The notes under the pieces were generated by a model. The model searched no databases. It had not been told where the DNA came from and worked only from the letters and a program-made list of their open reading frames with translations. A stretch of DNA of 64,000 bases from the IMG/VR virus record IMGVR_UViG_3300009514_000009, one strand, 5' to 3'. This document shows positions 8,437 through 63,625 of this stretch, piece after piece. A program made the position numbers and the translations under genes. The stretch is from a virus. Taxonomy: Duplodnaviria; Heunggongvirae; Uroviricota; Caudoviricetes. Positions within the stretch are counted from its first letter, which is position 1. Each line of letters opens with the position of its first letter.

Positions 8437-8475
8437 GTTGTCGATCCTCCAGATCGGGTTTCTTGTCTACTGCTA

Positions 8476-9165
8476 CTACTCGCCAGCGGGTGCTTTTGAG
8501 CCTTCCTGCCAGCCGACCTTGACCTCGATGCCGAGGCGCTTCGCCACCGCTGCCCAGACGGGCAGGTTGGCCGCGGGGTGGAGGTAGAAGGTCACGTCGA
8601 GGGGCCAGTCGGCATAGTCCTTGGCCCAGCCGAGGGCCACCTCGGCGCACGTCTCGACGGGGCAGCCGTAGACCCCTGCGCTGATGGCGGGGTAGGCGAT
8701 ACTCTTGCAGCCCATGCCCAAGGCCACGAGGGCGGGCATCTTGTAGCACTCGCGCAGTGTCTGACGAGCCAAGTCCTCAGCCCGGACCTCGGTGACGCCG
8801 AACTTCATCTGCATACCCGCGAGGCTGCTCGCTGGGTTGTTGGCGAAGTAGAGGGCGGCATCCGGGTCCGTGGGCCAAACCGGGCCTGCCGTGTGGATGA
8901 CCCAGTGGCAGGGCAGGTTGAACGCGGGAGTTGGGACGGCTCCACCGTTGGGCACACGGATGCTCGTCACGGGCTCCAAGCCCGGCCCGTAGCCCTCTTT
9001 GTGGATGATGGGCAGGAGCTTGCAGGCCTCCCGCAGCCCCGGCCCGGCGGCCTTGTGAATGGCCCCGTCCGCACCCCCACCGCCGAGGCCCTTGTTGTTG
9101 GCTGGGTTGACGATCACGTCGCCGTTGAACGAGCAAATGTCACCTGCGATGAGGGTGATGTTCAT
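8476..9165 (-). CDS. Macro domain protein (ADP-ribose binding and hydrolysis).
   Basis: VNPANNKGLGGGGADGAIHKAAG is the classic macro-domain Gly-rich ADP-ribose pocket. Confidence 0.85.
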   Translation of the reverse strand: MNITLIAGDICSFNGDVIVNPANNKGLGGGGADGAIHKAAGPGLREACKLLPIIHKEGYGPGLEPVTSIRVPNGGAVPTPAFNLPCHWVIHTAGPVWPTDPDAALYFANNPASSLAGMQMKFGVTEVRAEDLARQTLRECYKMPALVALGMGCKSIAYPAISAGVYGCPVETCAEVALGWAKDYADWPLDVTFYLHPAANLPVWAAVAKRLGIEVKVGWQEGSKAPAGE

Positions 9166-9338
9166 GTCTTGAACCTCTTGGCCCGCTTGGGCTTTTCATT
9201 GATCTCGTCGAGCATCCCCCACAACTCGCAGTAGTGCTCGCAGATGGGGCAGGTGCATTCCGGGTTGGGGAGGCACGGAGGCGCGATGGCCTCGATGTTC
9301 TCCAGCTCCGTGATGATGGATTTGCGGGTCCTCGTCAT
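9162..9338 (-). CDS. Small Cys-rich protein.
   Basis: Translation MTRTRKSIITELENIEAIAPPCLPNPECTCPICEHYCELWG. The ORF-track extension upstream is an R-rich artefact. Confidence 0.4.
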   Translation of the reverse strand: MTRTRKSIITELENIEAIAPPCLPNPECTCPICEHYCELWGMLDEINEKPKRAKRFKT

Positions 9339-9601
9339 GGCAAGGCCCGCTCCCGCGTCACGCGGTAGAACTCGTGGGTGATGCGGGAGAAGCCCACTTC
9401 GGCCAGCCAGAGCCCACCCGAGGTGCGCACCTCGCGGCTGATCTCGTGGATGCCTCCGACCTTGTAGATCGTGCATCCGCCGCCGAACTCCTCGGTGGCG
9501 ACCTTCTCGGCCCACTCGTCGAGCTTCACGATGCGAGGGTCGGGCGGGGGCAGGGGCGGCGGTTCCGTCTGATGTCCGAACAGGTTCAGTAGCCAACGCA
9601 T
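9335..9601 (-). CDS. Hypothetical protein.
   Basis: 88 aa, preceded by a motif copy at about 9605-9650. Confidence 0.45.
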   Translation of the reverse strand: MRWLLNLFGHQTEPPPLPPPDPRIVKLDEWAEKVATEEFGGGCTIYKVGGIHEISREVRTSGGLWLAEVGFSRITHEFYRVTRERALP

Positions 9602-9646
9602 GTCGGGCCTCCTCAGCCACTACTGGGAACCGCCACCACTTGAGCC

Positions 9647-10648
9647 CTACGGGGCTGGGGCCGGAGCCGGGGCTGGGGCCGGAGCCGGGGCCGGTTCGGC
9701 GGGTGCTCCGGTCGGCTGCTGCTTCTCCGCGGCCTCCTGAGCCTCCTGAATGCGCTTGAGCAACGCGGCGTCGAGGAGCCCTTGCGGCTGCAACCACTTG
9801 CTGGTGTCGAGCCCGTTGTTGGCCGCGTCGGTGTAGGGGATGAGGAACATATTGTTCGCCCCGTTCGCGGCGTCCTCCATCACGTCCCACTGCCGCCACA
9901 TGATGAGCTGCGGGCTCACGCTGGACGCGAGGATGCGGTTGGCGTCCGCCTGTGCCTTGGCCCTCAGCAGAGACGACTGAGCCTCGACACGGGCGAGAGC
10001 CAGCTTGCCTTCGGCCTCAGCCTTGAGTCGCAGGGCTTCCGCGTGGGCCTCCTTGATCTGCACCTCGCGCTCGGCGGCCTTGATCTCGGCGTTGGTCACC
10101 ACGTCGGGGAAGTCGAGGTTGCCCACCGTGACCCGCTTGACCCTGAAGATGCCACCGGAGGTCTTGGCCATCACAGCCGCCTTGACCTCCTCGATGATCT
10201 GGATGCGTTTCTCGACCAGCTCCTTCCGTGCGCTGTACTTGCTCACGATGCCGCGGGCCGTCTCGTCGGCCACGGGCAGCACGTAGGTCTCGTAGAGCTG
10301 CTGCGCCGTGAACACCTTGTTCTCGCCTGCGGGGATGAGGTTCTCGAAGACGTTGGCGACCTGATCGCCCTCCATGTCCACCGCGGCGAGGATGCCGAGG
10401 GTGAACTTGAAGTTGAGCTTGTCGGCGCACAGCACGTCCATCGGGTGGTCGAACTGCCGGTCGCTCGTCTCCATGAGGTACATCTCGCACCGCCCGAAGC
10501 ACGAGTGGCGACCCGGCTTGAGCAGCTCGCCTTGGAAGCCGCCGGGCTCCCATGTGCGGCCCGTGTGGCCCGCGGGGACGATCTTGTTGCAGCCGGTGGC
10601 CAGCAGGGTGAGGCCCAGCAGGGCCATGAGCAGGATCTTGGGGTTCAT
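9647..10648 (-). CDS. SPFH/band-7 (HflK/C, stomatin, prohibitin-like) lipoprotein.
   Basis: Lipobox LLATGC, an SPFH core, a long coiled-coil and a C-terminal (AP)n tail. Confidence 0.8.
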   Translation of the reverse strand: MNPKILLMALLGLTLLATGCNKIVPAGHTGRTWEPGGFQGELLKPGRHSCFGRCEMYLMETSDRQFDHPMDVLCADKLNFKFTLGILAAVDMEGDQVANVFENLIPAGENKVFTAQQLYETYVLPVADETARGIVSKYSARKELVEKRIQIIEEVKAAVMAKTSGGIFRVKRVTVGNLDFPDVVTNAEIKAAEREVQIKEAHAEALRLKAEAEGKLALARVEAQSSLLRAKAQADANRILASSVSPQLIMWRQWDVMEDAANGANNMFLIPYTDAANNGLDTSKWLQPQGLLDAALLKRIQEAQEAAEKQQPTGAPAEPAPAPAPAPAPAPAP

Positions 10649-11106
10649 CGGTCAGCTCCTTCGGTCTTGGTGTTGGGGGTGTCCGTGCCCAGCTCCTTGC
10701 GGAACTCGTCGAACTTCTCGGCTTCGCTCTTGGTCGCGGCAGCTTCCTCTGCCGCCTTCCGCTCGCGCTCCGCGGCCAACTCTGCCCGCGTCTGCGGCTT
10801 GATGGCCTCCTCGTCGGTCTTCACGGTGGCCGTGAAGTCAGGTCGAGGCTTGGCCGCCTCGACGTTGTGCAGGGCCGCGTTCTTCGCGGTCTGCGTGCCG
10901 CCCAGCGTGATCATGTAGCCGCCGACCAGCATCACTGCCGTCAGCAGGAAGGGCGTCAGGAAGGGCGTCAGGCGGGACTGGTTGCCGCTGTTCGACCACG
11001 CATCCGCAGCTCGGACCCAGAGGGGCAGCAGGGCCACCACCCCGACCAAGAGGGTCAGGGTCAGGCCGATCCAGAGCAGGGCGCTCACATGGGGATCAGA
11101 AATCAT
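10645..11106 (-). CDS. Membrane protein, possibly an NfeD-like partner of the SPFH protein.
   Basis: Start MISDPHVSALLW follows GGAGA. Two TM segments and a charged C-terminus. Lies immediately upstream of the SPFH gene and overlaps it. Confidence 0.45.
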   Translation of the reverse strand: MISDPHVSALLWIGLTLTLLVGVVALLPLWVRAADAWSNSGNQSRLTPFLTPFLLTAVMLVGGYMITLGGTQTAKNAALHNVEAAKPRPDFTATVKTDEEAIKPQTRAELAAERERKAAEEAAATKSEAEKFDEFRKELGTDTPNTKTEGADR

Positions 11107-62441: not shown

Positions 62442-62496
62442 TGCTTGTGCTCTCTTGCCTGAAAGGCCTCCCCCGGCCTCACCGGAAAGTACAAGA

Positions 62497-62580
62497 GCGG
62501 GCCGAGGGAGGGGGTGAAAAGGCCTCCCTCGGCCCGCCGGTCATGCGCGGCGGGCCGAGGGAGCCCCCGGCCCGCCGGAT
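62497..62580 (-). terminator. Tandem GC-rich hairpins (terminator-like) downstream of the 62617..63393 gene.
   Basis: GCGGGCCGAGGGAGG-loop-CCTCCCTCGGCCCGC (15 bp stem), then GGCGGGCCG-AGGGAGCCCC-CGGCCCGCC (9 bp stem). Confidence 0.5.
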
Positions 62581-62616
62581 GCTCAGACAGCGGGCCGAGG
62601 GTGAAAGGAGAGAAGC

Positions 62617-63393
62617 TCAGGCGGCCTTGGACCGGCGGATGGCGTCCCGCACCTCGGGGGTGAAGTGGATGCCCGCGGCCTCGGCCTCGACGGCGGCGGT
62701 GCCACCGGCACGGAGCAGGAAGTCGGTGCCCGGCTCCAGCTTGTAGGAGACGTAGCGGCTGACGGGCAGGCGCTTCCGCAGCAGACCCTTGGCGACCACC
62801 TTGGCGCTCGACTGGCTCGCGGGCGTCGGGCCGTTCGGGGCCGGAGTGATGACCTTGCTGCCGATCTGGAGGCCCTGCACGTAGATGGTGCCGGGCTTCG
62901 CCGGAGCCTTGTCGCCGCGGGCCTCGGCCTCGGGGGTCTGGCCCTTGTAGACGCGGCAGCCGCGCACGCTCTCGCCGTCCACGACCAGACCCTCGAAGAC
63001 GTGGTCGGTGGTGGACTCGTTGGTGCCGTTGACGCTCTTGGTCAGCGACTCGACCAGCTCCTCGCGGGCCTCCGCGAAGTCGGCGAGGGTCAGCTCGACC
63101 TCGACCGCCTTTTTGCCGCGACCGGACCACGCCTTGATGCCCTTGGCCTGCGCATCGGCGAGCACGTCGGCGTCGCTGATGGTGGCGAGGGCGTCGAGGC
63201 TGCGCTGGCAGAGCCCGGCGTACTTGAAGCCCGTGAACATGCAGACACGCACCGTGTCGTCGCCGTAGCGGACCTTGGCACCCTTGGGGCCGCGCTCGGT
63301 CCCCACCTTGGTGGTGACGAGGCCGGTGAAGGTTCCGACCTTGGAGTCGGCGAGAAGGGCAGCGATGAGGGCGCTGTTGGCGTTCGTGCTCAT
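62617..63393 (-). CDS. Hypothetical protein.
   Basis: Start MSTNANSALIAALL is preceded by a motif copy at 63394-63470. The listed N-terminal extension is spurious. Confidence 0.5.
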   Translation of the reverse strand: MSTNANSALIAALLADSKVGTFTGLVTTKVGTERGPKGAKVRYGDDTVRVCMFTGFKYAGLCQRSLDALATISDADVLADAQAKGIKAWSGRGKKAVEVELTLADFAEAREELVESLTKSVNGTNESTTDHVFEGLVVDGESVRGCRVYKGQTPEAEARGDKAPAKPGTIYVQGLQIGSKVITPAPNGPTPASQSSAKVVAKGLLRKRLPVSRYVSYKLEPGTDFLLRAGGTAAVEAEAAGIHFTPEVRDAIRRSKAA

Positions 63394-63548
63394 GGGGGCA
63401 GGCTCCTGTGTTGGGCGGGCTGTTTCTCCCGCGTTCACCATCACTACTGACACCCCCGAACTTTTGAGCCCCTGACCCGAGAAAAAACCTCGCCTCGCGT
63501 AGGCGCACGCGCATGTAGCTGTAATCGTAGGGTTTTTCGGTTTCCGCT

Positions 63549-63625
63549 GTGTGGGGCTCAAATCTCCGGCGACGCCAGTAGTAGGGGTGAACGCGGCGAG
63601 AGCCCACAACGAACGGAGACGACGA
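63549..63625 (+). promoter_or_regulatory. Conserved promoter/leader motif copy.
   Basis: GGGGCTCAAATCTCCGGCGACGCCAGTAGTAGGGGTGAACGCGGCGAGAGCCCACAACGAACGGAGACGACG then ATG. Confidence 0.6.

Follow-up and report, generated by a model that had tools for sequence, protein, structure and literature searches.

A recurrent two-box element in a 64-kb phage genome segment is probably a promoter read by the phage's own ECF-type sigma factor

The 64,000-nucleotide stretch of DNA analysed here (hereafter the window), which appears to be part of a large, GC-rich phage genome, carries a real repeat element: 25 copies of GGCTCAA-N16-GTAGT(A/G) and one degenerate copy. The element is probably a promoter cassette, read by the phage's own ECF-type sigma factor with the host core RNA polymerase, within a cascade that sigma-70 would start.

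Copies were searched across the window as GGCTCAA and GTAGTA, allowing at most one mismatch in each box. The boxes were separated by exactly 16 nt in 25/25 copies, and three matches with other box spacings were secondary or chance matches. The -35-like box reads GGGGCTCA(A/G)AA and the -10-like box (C/G)A-GTAGT(A/G); neither resembles the sigma-70 consensus, as the sequence-only reading of this DNA had stated. The spacer is unconserved in sequence and holds the two boxes 16 bp apart. Downstream of the -10-like box there is often a G-run, followed by conserved purines 6-8 nt past the box (GGGGTGAA), and in the best copies the conserved block reaches about 45 nt. A two-box weight matrix, an approach proposed in that earlier reading, separated the 25 copies (28-37.5 bits; information content of the motif about 37 bits) from the next-best site in the window (4.9 bits), with the degenerate copy at 17.7 bits. 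The top score in 40 dinucleotide shuffles was 15.9 bits, and shuffled sequence contained no copies of the two-box motif. In a separate shuffle test a 17-mer had 12 matches against 0.07 expected and an 11-mer 18 against 0.85. About 27 copies had been claimed from the sequence; every listed position corresponds to a copy found here except 45862-45885, which is a GTAGTAGGG half-site without a -35 box.

The copy cores lay fully outside predicted genes in 22 of 25 cases, in a window whose non-coding share is only 13%, and the remaining three occupied the final bases of an upstream co-directional gene. All 25 are directed towards the gene that follows, although for one the target may be a non-coding transcript. 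The distance from box to start codon was 5-64 nt in 22 copies; outside this range were a copy ahead of a tRNA and those at 55362..55390 (179 nt) and 56623..56651. Since the boxes keep a constant spacing while the ATG lies at variable distances, and one copy serves a tRNA, the constraint acts on DNA and transcription, which agrees with the transcriptional rather than translational role proposed earlier.

Some minus-strand copies start gene runs. The copy at 8474..8502 (GGCTCAA-N16-GTAGTA), 37 nt from the ATG of 7981-8436, starts a run of about 12 minus-strand genes, and that at 31669..31697, 38 nt from the ATG of the NAD-dependent DNA ligase gene (29699-31630), an 11-gene run. The copy at 43788..43816 starts a 9-gene run in which a PG_binding_1 (endolysin-like) protein and methyltransferases are encoded, together with a weak match to family-2 glycosyltransferases, and the one at 63442..63470 (GTAGTG), 48 nt from the ATG of 62617-63393, a 9-gene run containing a histidine kinase and a response regulator. 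Further copies on this strand are located at 9618..9646 (GTAGTG; 16 nt to the ATG of 9335-9601), 14942..14970 (inside the upstream gene, at its 3' end; 25 nt to the ATG of 14776-14916), 15912..15940 (37 nt to the ATG of 15374-15874), 22484..22512 (21 nt to the start of 22034-22462), 23953..23981 (GTAGTG; 26 nt to the ATG of 23456-23926), 32604..32632 (43 nt to the ATG of 31994-32560), 46803..46831 (15 nt to the ATG of 46251-46787) and 55998..56026 (GTAGTT; 31 nt to the ATG of 55598-55966).

On the plus strand, copies were found at 16035..16063 (23 nt to the ATG at 16087), 16382..16410 (-35 box directly adjoining the upstream stop codon; 44 nt to the ATG at 16455), 32729..32757 (GGCTCAG; 29 nt to the ATG at 32787), 33532..33560 (64 nt to the ATG of a PARP-like gene, 33625-35178), 35195..35223 (61 nt to the ATG at 35285), 43841..43869 (GTAGTG; 47 nt to the ATG at 43917), 50838..50866 (19 nt to the ATG at 50886), 51462..51490 (22 nt to the ATG at 51513) and 63555..63583 (41 nt to the ATG at 63625). 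The degenerate copy, GGCTCGG-N16-GTAGTA, lies at 18218..18246(+), 27 nt from the ATG at 18274. The five back-to-back divergent pairs noticed in the sequence were all recovered (15940/16035, 32632/32729, 43816/43841, 56608/56623 and 63470/63555).

Other copies deserve separate mention. The copy at 56580..56608(-), whose -10-like box is GTAGTC, ends 12 nt ahead of the 5' end of an amber-reading tRNA (anticodon CUA; 56491..56567, minus strand), close to the 11 nt given before, and this tRNA would be transcribed from it. For its divergent partner at 56623..56651(+) (GTAGTG) the gene caller gives no downstream gene; a doubtful ORF was seen by eye 16 nt after it, and the coding signal over the downstream 1.2 kb is weak. 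As the next clear gene is 179 nt from the copy at 55362..55390(-), a long leader or a small RNA is suggested there; past this copy, at 55342-55315, is a sigma-70-like TTGACA-16-TACATT site. The copy at 11404..11432(-) is only 5 nt from the ATG of 11096-11398, which puts the predicted start site on the A of this ATG and makes a leaderless mRNA plausible. Leaderless transcripts had been suggested for this gene and at 56425; the latter site is another GTAGTAGGG half-site and does not count as a copy.

The proposal that the unit doubles as terminator and promoter was not supported. The -35 box and the spacer pair into a strong hairpin in only four copies (31669..31697, -14.1 kcal/mol; 33532..33560, -14.3; 35195..35223, -15.8; and 55362..55390, the strongest, -17.9), two other palindromes were back-to-back -35 boxes, no T-run followed the hairpins of the copies and terminator-like sites were not in excess. 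Nor was nearly gene-by-gene transcription supported, since the predicted units comprise 1-13 genes (median 2-3). A different stem-loop, GCGGG-AGNAACAG-CCCGC, occupies the 5'UTR downstream of four copies, at 16420..16437(+), 43880-43897(+), 32577-32594(-) and 63415-63432(-), ahead of unrelated genes.

The sigma factor that had been recognised at the window start is well supported. Within the window the gene (1..1029, minus strand) has 343 codons; its product is a divergent ECF-type sigma factor whose C-terminal helix-turn-helix is interrupted by the window edge. The family profile matched sigma-H (PDB 3mzy) with E=1.8e-6, covering the sigma-2 and sigma-4 domains, and Pfam detected Sigma70_r2 in 32/94 family members and Sigma70_ECF in 12/94. 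An AlphaFold model (pLDDT 82) had SigL, SigH, RpoE, AlgU and SigW as top Foldseek matches, and both model and matches indicate a two-domain sigma-2/sigma-4 fold, to which the window protein adds a conserved N-terminal extension of about 150 aa. The motif is absent from the region upstream of the gene (1059..1204, minus strand), where two conserved promoter-like elements occur instead: TTGACA (1089-1084) and TTGCCC (about 1203), each with the palindrome CCCGAATCTCGGG (1068-1080 and 1187-1199); the TTGACA plus palindrome element is kept in the window and six relatives. That the sigma gene carries this conserved TTGACA element in place of the motif implies that the primary promoters of the host are canonical. 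No anti-sigma gene was recognised beside the sigma gene.

The motif and the sigma factor co-occur in other contigs. Seven loci (six distinct contigs) with sigma homologues of 45-64% identity (L085/86, L087, L089 and L091-L094) carry the motif or, in the same register, a variant of it, with 2-9 copies each per 12-21 kb in all but L089, whose variant is GGTTCAG-N16-GTATAG; many relatives have CGTA at the -10 box, whereas in the window copies the base preceding GTA is A, not C. In this close clade the sigma gene co-occurs with a whole syntenic block, so the linkage there is not sigma-specific. Two huge-phage loci, L032 and L037, share with the window only the sigma factor (37% identity over the best matching segment), and yet show a motif in the same register: about nine copies each of GGATCAT-N16-GTAG in L032 and GGTTCC-N16-GTA(A/T)AG in L037, with GGnTC-N18-GTA enriched at z=7.8 and 9.1, respectively. 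Most other distant sigma loci had no clear motif in the window's register. This comparison of sequences supports the view that the motif tracks the sigma family of the window.

These data also bear on the possibility that a host alternative sigma factor, hijacked by the phage, reads the motif, the phage sigma then serving other genes, for instance late structural ones beyond the window. The sigma-bearing loci retrieved by two pattern-based scans included none of the nine IMG/VR contigs (28-169 kb) that bear the motif and may be partial genomes. The loci from these contigs have the same motif and only one protein detectably common with the window (a single match, in L006), as expected from a shared host. 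Moreover, differences in the reading regions of the sigma factors do not follow those of the boxes: proteins P0004 (L089) and P0002 (L091) have nearly the same sigma-2 and sigma-4 reading regions, despite promoters of GGTTCAG/GTATAG and GGCTCAA/GTAGT, and the window sigma-4 helix (DMAGLSAQSQT) diverges from that of its relatives (SMAAVSRAIS) in spite of a shared -35 box. Against a host factor, the strict motif was found in multiple copies in 0 of 185,579 species genomes, its information content far exceeds that of typical host regulons, and L032 and L037 carry a motif in the same register with only the phage sigma in common. We therefore consider this explanation unlikely.

The boxes could also be bound by a phage DNA-binding regulator, either an activator acting with the host sigma or a repressor resembling the stoperators of Cluster A mycobacteriophages. 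The conserved block is longer than a sigma factor needs, and the motif is uniform within a genome but differs between genomes with nearly identical sigma reading regions. However, the boxes are asymmetric, not palindromic, the copies are strictly upstream and co-oriented (tRNA included), their 16-bp spacing and distance to the start-region purines are of promoter type, no sigma-70-like -10/-35 pair accompanies them, and sites of sigma-70 type were not found in 1-40 kb; we regard such a site as quite improbable. Still less credit can be given to a promoter of a phage RNA polymerase (of either the single-subunit or the multisubunit type) whose gene would lie beyond the window. The 64 kb seen belong to a probably larger genome and several large window proteins have no recognisable family, but T7-like promoters form one continuous block of about 20 bp reaching +1 rather than paired boxes around a free spacer, the window does encode a sigma factor, and no polymerase-like match was obtained in the relatives examined or among about 50 larger window proteins scanned, which also weighs against the element-specific polymerase suggested earlier. 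Finally, despite the closeness of the copies to start codons and a GGAG site and UTR hairpin that surely act in RNA, a role in RNA or translation, like that of Cluster K start-associated sequences, or a mobile repeat, is very hard to reconcile with the variable ATG distance, the tRNA copy, copies without room for a leader (11432), the lack of terminal repeats or target duplications and an orientation always tied to genes.

We thus favor a promoter cassette dependent on the phage sigma factor. In the proposed cascade, host sigma-70 polymerase would make the phage sigma, as judged from the TTGACA-type promoters of its gene, in which an operator-like palindrome is embedded. Host core RNA polymerase carrying the product of 1-1029(-) would then read the two boxes, start transcription at the conserved purines 6-8 nt past the -10 box and generate a short leader with a GGAG ribosome-binding site and, in four copies, the GCGGG/CCCGC stem-loop. 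About 25 units of 1-13 genes would be switched on, including in the window the NAD-dependent ligase, PARP, Macro, Sir2 and deoxynucleotide monophosphate kinase-like genes and the tRNA, and in relatives rIIB and rIIA-like genes.

Start-associated sequences of Cluster K mycobacteriophages and Cluster A stoperators are single 13-bp sites, the former tied to start codons and the latter bound by a repressor. Like them, the element occurs as many oriented, short conserved copies near gene starts of a GC-rich phage; unlike them, it consists of two boxes at constant spacing, lies at differing distances from the start codon and also occurs before a tRNA. In phages T4 and SPO1, phage sigma factors re-target the host RNA polymerase to phage promoters in time order, as proposed here. 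T4 late promoters, read by gp55, have a single -10-like element (TATAAATA) and require the sliding clamp, and the promoter boxes of SPO1 gp28 and gp33/34 are AT-rich; the sigma families differ from that of the window and the SPO1 boxes are unrelated to the element.

With two short boxes close to consensus and a spacer within the 14-17 bp of ECF promoters (PMC5758882), the geometry fits that of bacterial ECF (group 4) promoters, and the sigma fold is likewise shared. The sigma-W promoter of B. subtilis is TGAAAC-N16-CGTATA (PMC5758882), and its CGTA-type -10 box recurs in relatives of the window (CGTATAG in L089). A homopolymer tract adjoins the -35 box in both cases, an A-tract here versus a T-tract in bacteria (PMC5758882). 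In contrast to bacterial ECF systems, the -35 box is GGCTCA, without the AAC motif at the canonical register, the sigma gene has neither an auto-regulatory promoter nor a recognised anti-sigma neighbour, and the predicted regulon takes in most of a phage genome segment rather than stress-response genes. Among phages, gp47 of Salmonella phage 7-11 reads the bipartite late promoter GTAAtg-N16-aCTA (PMC8948821); this factor and gp36 of phiEco32 are sigma-70-family proteins acting with the host core polymerase, while early genes use host sigma-70 (PMC8948821, PMC12276001). The putative promoter of the window shares with that of 7-11 its phage specificity, its bipartite layout and the 16-nt spacer. 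The box sequences are unrelated, the eight late promoters of 7-11 contrast with 25 in 56 kb ahead of accessory and DNA-metabolism genes, the window sigma has the extra N-terminal region, and its phage, unlike 7-11 and phiEco32, is uncultivated, GC-rich and probably much larger. Phage sigma switching is an already known strategy, to which the present work would add a new sigma family and a new consensus.

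The GGCTCAA and GTAGTA boxes, each allowed at most one mismatch, were found together at 25 sites on the two strands of the window, and the spacing between them is exactly 16 nt in all 25 copies. The sequence-only reading had listed about 27 sites by eye; these corresponded to the 25 copies and a degenerate one, but the site at 45862-45885 is only a GTAGTAGGG half-site. A weight matrix derived from the 25 copies holds about 37 bits, and sites in dinucleotide-shuffled sequence came nowhere near the scores of the true copies. When the whole window was scanned with the two-box matrix, the scores were bimodal: the 25 copies, at 28-37.5 bits, lay far above the next-best window site (4.9 bits), with the degenerate copy at 18218(+) (GGCTCGG) scoring 17.7 bits and the best site in the shuffles 15.9 bits. 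Shuffles made by the search tool itself gave the same picture. The repeated element is real and well defined. Its consensus over the 25 copies reads GGGGCTCAAAa-(~11 nt, weak CG/GG preference)-C(c/g)A-GTAGT(A/G), often followed 3' of the -10 box by a G-rich stretch, with conserved purines at the 6th-8th nt (e.g. GGGGTGAA), which indirectly favour a transcription start a few nt beyond this box.

The cores of the copies fall outside predicted genes in 22 of 25 cases, compared with a non-coding share of 13% for the window, and the remaining three lie within the extreme 3' end of the gene before them; the -35 box is often abutted by the stop codon of that gene, as in tggTAGGGGCTCAAAA at 16382. All 25 copies face the next gene, and in 22 of them the -10 box lies 5-64 nt before the start codon, usually with a GGAG site within this interval. 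Copy 56608(-) precedes the amber-reading tRNA(CUA), a placement noticed earlier, by 12 nt, and the five divergent pairs proposed at that time were recovered; in two of them the -35 boxes are close enough to make a palindrome. The next clear gene after copy 55390(-) is 179 nt away, while after copy 56623(+) the gene finder calls nothing, a doubtful ORF starting 16 nt on being visible by eye. Since copy 11432 is only 5 nt before the ATG, its predicted start site is the A of this codon; the suggestion of leaderless transcripts therefore holds for this copy, but not for 56425, which is a half-site. The element is very likely a promoter of some kind.

It had also been proposed that the unit serves as terminator plus promoter. 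Strong hairpins spanning the -35 box and spacer (-14 to -18 kcal/mol) were found in only four copies (31697, 33532, 35195 and 55390), none with a T-run, and terminator-like sites were not in excess (11, 9 and 11 vs 10.0, 8.9 and 11.4 expected), so that this part of the proposal is not supported. Neither did we find transcription to be nearly gene by gene, as the predicted units comprise 1-13 genes. The sole convincing terminator-like structure seen in the window is a 15-bp GC-rich hairpin at 36227-36261, between the convergent genes 35285-36181(+) and 36260-36820(-).

Other features accompany some copies. A stem-loop in the 5'UTR, GCGGG-AG(A/C)(A/G)ACAG-CCCGC, occurs at 16420-16437(+), 43880-43897(+), 32577-32594(-) and 63415-63432(-); the four genes concerned are unrelated, and in each the stem-loop separates the predicted start site from the ribosome-binding site. 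Its nucleotide sequence is conserved in divergent relatives (L089, position 3514; L006, position 1384), and in locus L089 it is carried by one of about seven variant motif copies; it may serve, as RNA, in regulation or stabilisation. Behind copy 56608(-), the stretch 56430-56567(-) holds the tRNA(CUA) and, after it, a mini-ORF of 12 codons ending in TAG TAG, whose stop overlaps the start region of the gene at 56030-56425. A global recoding of TAG was rejected, as in a tally of 82 higher-scoring predicted genes this codon served as the stop in 24. The 1.2 kb or so after copy 56623(+) (56650-57850) shows weak coding signal and a tRNA T-arm-like stretch, GAGTTCAAATCTCGGGTCGGGCGA; neither Rfam, which reported only the tRNA in the window, nor ARAGORN returned anything here, and this region may hold a degenerate gene or give rise to a non-coding RNA. 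Just 3' of copy 55390 there is a good sigma-70-like site, TTGACA-16-TACATT (55315-55342(-)). As only a 10-codon ORF follows it, this region may represent a dual-promoter small RNA or a long leader.

A candidate to read the element had been noticed at the window start, and profile, Pfam and structure searches agree that this gene encodes a sigma factor. Its minus-strand frame is open from 1029 to 1, has a good ribosome-binding site at the start and runs off the window; the last 167 codons present gave only a faint Sigma70_r2 match. At least 285 homologues of about 310-350 aa were found, some named sigma-70 or sigma-24 family by JGI, on viral contigs of up to 619 kb; among 50,697 phage records, the only tblastn match was one uncultured 485-kb phage. 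A profile of 41 homologues matched PDB 3mzy (sigma-H) with E=1.8e-6 over the sigma-2 and sigma-4 domains, and in a one-by-one Pfam scan of 94 members Sigma70_r2 was recognised in 32, Sigma70_ECF in 12 and Sigma70_r4_2 in six. The AlphaFold model of P0002, the homologue from locus L091 (pLDDT 82), begins with a small beta-rich domain, from which a disordered linker leads to two helical domains, and its best Foldseek matches were the ECF sigmas SigL, SigH, RpoE, AlgU and SigW (probability 0.92-0.97, at a modest E of ~0.01). Sigma-2 and sigma-4 domains are present in the absence of sigma-1.1 or sigma-3, as in ECF-like sigmas. The N-terminal domain, conserved as SRYxDGARPVRV...LTGHPxGRHWSxDRYF and predicted to be beta-rich before the disordered linker (residues 1-167 of the window sigma, 529-1029(-); residues 16-70 of P0002), found no match in our searches. 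At the other end, the recognition helix of the window sigma-4 domain, LGRDMAGLSAQSQT (1-70(-)), is strongly unlike the LRVSMAVVSRAISY of a 90%-identical homologue, a difference that is in frame and involves no frameshift.

We probably have here a promoter read by the phage's own ECF-type sigma, and the comparison with other contigs bears directly on this pairing. Contigs encoding sigma homologues of 45-64% identity were obtained by exact-protein look-up, and the motif was present in seven loci (six distinct contigs) of this kind. L085 and L086 carry GGCTCAG-N16-GTAGT in nine and five copies; there are five copies in L087, seven in L091, four in L092, two, with GTAGA, in L093 and six in L094. 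L089, whose sigma is 60% identical, has the variant GGTTCAG-N16-GTATAG in the same register (about seven copies). Most of the 58 IMG/VR loci with distant sigma homologues showed 0-1 loose motif matches per 20 kb. Two of these distant loci, L032 and L037, have nothing in common with the window but the sigma (37% identity in the best matching segment), and each bears about nine copies of a motif in the same register, GGATCAT-N16-(GA)GTAG in L032 and GGTTCC-N16-(C)GTA(A/T)AG in L037, every one followed by a ribosome-binding site and ATG; GGnTC-N18-GTA is enriched in both (z=7.8 and z=9.1, respectively). No other finding argues as strongly as these two loci that the motif goes with the sigma family rather than just with a single phage lineage.

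The linkage has a second side. None of the nine motif-bearing IMG/VR contigs (28-169 kb) was among the sigma loci returned by two invariant-peptide/alignment-based scans; sigma-bearing contigs were present in two of the samples that yielded motif-bearing contigs, at least one of them of a different motif subtype. Moreover, no clean co-variation was found between sigma-2/sigma-4 residues and box variants, and the reading regions of P0004 (the L089 sigma) and P0002 are almost identical, yet their boxes differ. In view of these points and of the unusual sigma-4 helix of the window, the very high uniformity of the motif within each genome may be due in part to the copying of a promoter/leader cassette, or to a second factor. 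Blind bipartite word counting in distant sigma loci was noisy, and an apparent bipartite motif in L048 (GGTTCGA...CCA) was discarded as tRNA 3' ends; on this unrelated viral contig a tRNA gene array (18000-20200) adjoins a sigma homologue. Returning to the sigma as the reader of the motif, we tentatively put forward, with somewhat less than even confidence, that one code, GGnTC-N18-GTA, is read by the family in many large and huge phages that are otherwise unrelated, with the surrounding bases tuned to each genome, and that its conserved N-terminal domain and a palindromic operator constitute a new control switch. If true, the motif would offer a general means of predicting how uncultivated huge phages programme their transcription, and would yield orthogonal sigma/promoter pairs.

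The putative operator lies upstream of the sigma gene itself. No motif copy was found within 330 nt upstream of this gene in the window or in seven relatives. Instead, a conserved TTGACA lies around -60, with the palindrome CCCGA-N3-4-TCGGG and then an A-rich hexamer behind it, in the window and six of the seven relatives (L085, L087, L089, L091, L092 and L094); L093 does not have this element, and its only TTGACA is at -305. A second, related element, at about -170, can be made out clearly in the window and in five of those six relatives. The two elements, TTGACAAnnCCCGAnnTTCGGG and TTGCCCCGAAnnTCGGG respectively (window 1059-1204(-)), each contain the palindrome, and they look like operator-controlled sigma-70 promoters. 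A TTGACA element at a sigma gene that lacks the motif agrees with a cascade, the phage sigma being one that the host primary holoenzyme would make, and suggests that the host's own promoters are canonical. The sigma gene may also be reached by read-through from the motif promoter at 8502.

Other explanations of the element fared less well. T7-like single-subunit polymerases have promoters made of one uninterrupted conserved stretch, about 20 bp long, that extends to +1, whereas the element has two boxes and an unconserved spacer; no RNA polymerase was recognised among the scanned proteins of the window, which is part of a genome, or in the fetched relatives. Housekeeping sigma-70 promoters consist of hexamers similar to TTGACA-N16-18-TATAAT, with A as the second and T as the sixth base of the -10 box. 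The consensus scan called no copy, in agreement with the earlier remark that the boxes do not resemble this consensus: GTAGTA/TAGTAG does not end in T, and GGCTCA does not look like TTGACA. Sigma-70-like sites were not in excess in the window. The start-associated sequence of Cluster K mycobacteriophages is one short motif that sits very close to the start codon, always at the same distance; our copies are 5-64 nt from it, and one precedes a tRNA. A host-wide promoter or a prophage origin finds no support in 185,579 species genomes, where the strict motif gave only 11 hits, all single, six of them one unrelated conserved sequence (five in Burkholderiales MAGs) and the rest chance-like.

We take the window (GC ~65%) to be part of a large uncultivated phage. 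A near-identity search with 10 kb of it against 50,697 phage records gave no match, and the motif-bearing relatives, 28-169 kb long, are contigs from viral metagenomes; syntenic relatives have rIIB with an rIIA-like gene next to it. Recognisable genes encode an NAD-dependent DNA ligase (29699-31630), for which exact-protein look-up returned nothing on record, a PARP-like protein with WGR (33625-35178), Macro domain, SPFH and Sir2 proteins, a deoxynucleotide monophosphate kinase-like, a Bax-inhibitor-like and a topoisomerase-like protein, a PG_binding_1 protein with endolysin-type PHROG matches and a second protein with a weak amidase match. The Macro domain, Sir2, ligase, PARP and a second WGR protein form an NAD/ADP-ribose-related cluster (8476-9165, 24873-25679, 29699-31630, 33625-35178 and 60677-61699) of unusual density for a phage segment. 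A PAS histidine kinase and a response-regulator receiver lie side by side in a phage transcription unit (58001-60117(-)). The minus-strand block 46836-50735 has no motif promoter and includes an HNH/endonuclease VII homing-nuclease-like gene (49794-50735(-)), part of which matches the PHROGs 'Srd anti-sigma factor' (E=6e-12) and 'decoy of host sigma70' (E=4e-7). GC skew is strongly positive (0.14-0.27) in 1-6000, where the motif-free gene run beside the sigma gene lies, vs about 0 elsewhere.

That phages encode sigma factors reading dedicated promoters is a classical theme, and no concept is changed by our results. To our knowledge, however, almost nothing is known about the transcription signals of large phages seen only in metagenomes. 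Sequence evidence alone here links a sigma family, whose metagenomic members number in the hundreds, to a sharply defined promoter, of which full-text literature searches on GTAGTA and on terms for sigma factors and promoters returned no earlier description. What results is a sigma/promoter pair open to direct testing, from a sigma family that is widespread in large uncultivated phages and uncharacterised. The pairing also allows transcription units and a likely early-to-middle cascade to be drawn in such genomes without culturing, and it supplies candidates for orthogonal parts in synthetic biology.

ECF promoters deviate little from their consensus, with spacers of 14-17 bp and usually AAC at -35 and CGT at -10; the -10 of sigma-W is CGTA, and a homopolymer tract beside the -35 box can modulate such promoters (PMC5758882). 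The element resembles them in its 16-bp spacing, which is within this range and in a register kept in the relatives, and in the A-tract after the -35 box. The CGTA of many relatives (CGTAGT, CGTATAG) would fit as well, whereas in all window copies the invariant GTA of the -10 box is preceded by A. A sigma gene in the same genome (1-1029(-)) is a further point of agreement. The element differs in that the window -35 box, GGCTCA(A/G), has no AAC, that the AAC following this box in many relatives (GGCTCAGAAC) is off the canonical register, 12 nt and not ~16 nt from the -10 box, and that auto-regulation is missing, as the sigma gene is not preceded by a motif promoter. In Salmonella phage 7-11 the sigma gp47 reads GTAAtg-N16-aCTA, and early promoters use sigma-70 (PMC8948821). 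This phage is the nearest functional precedent for the system described here, and gp36 of phiEco32 is a second one.
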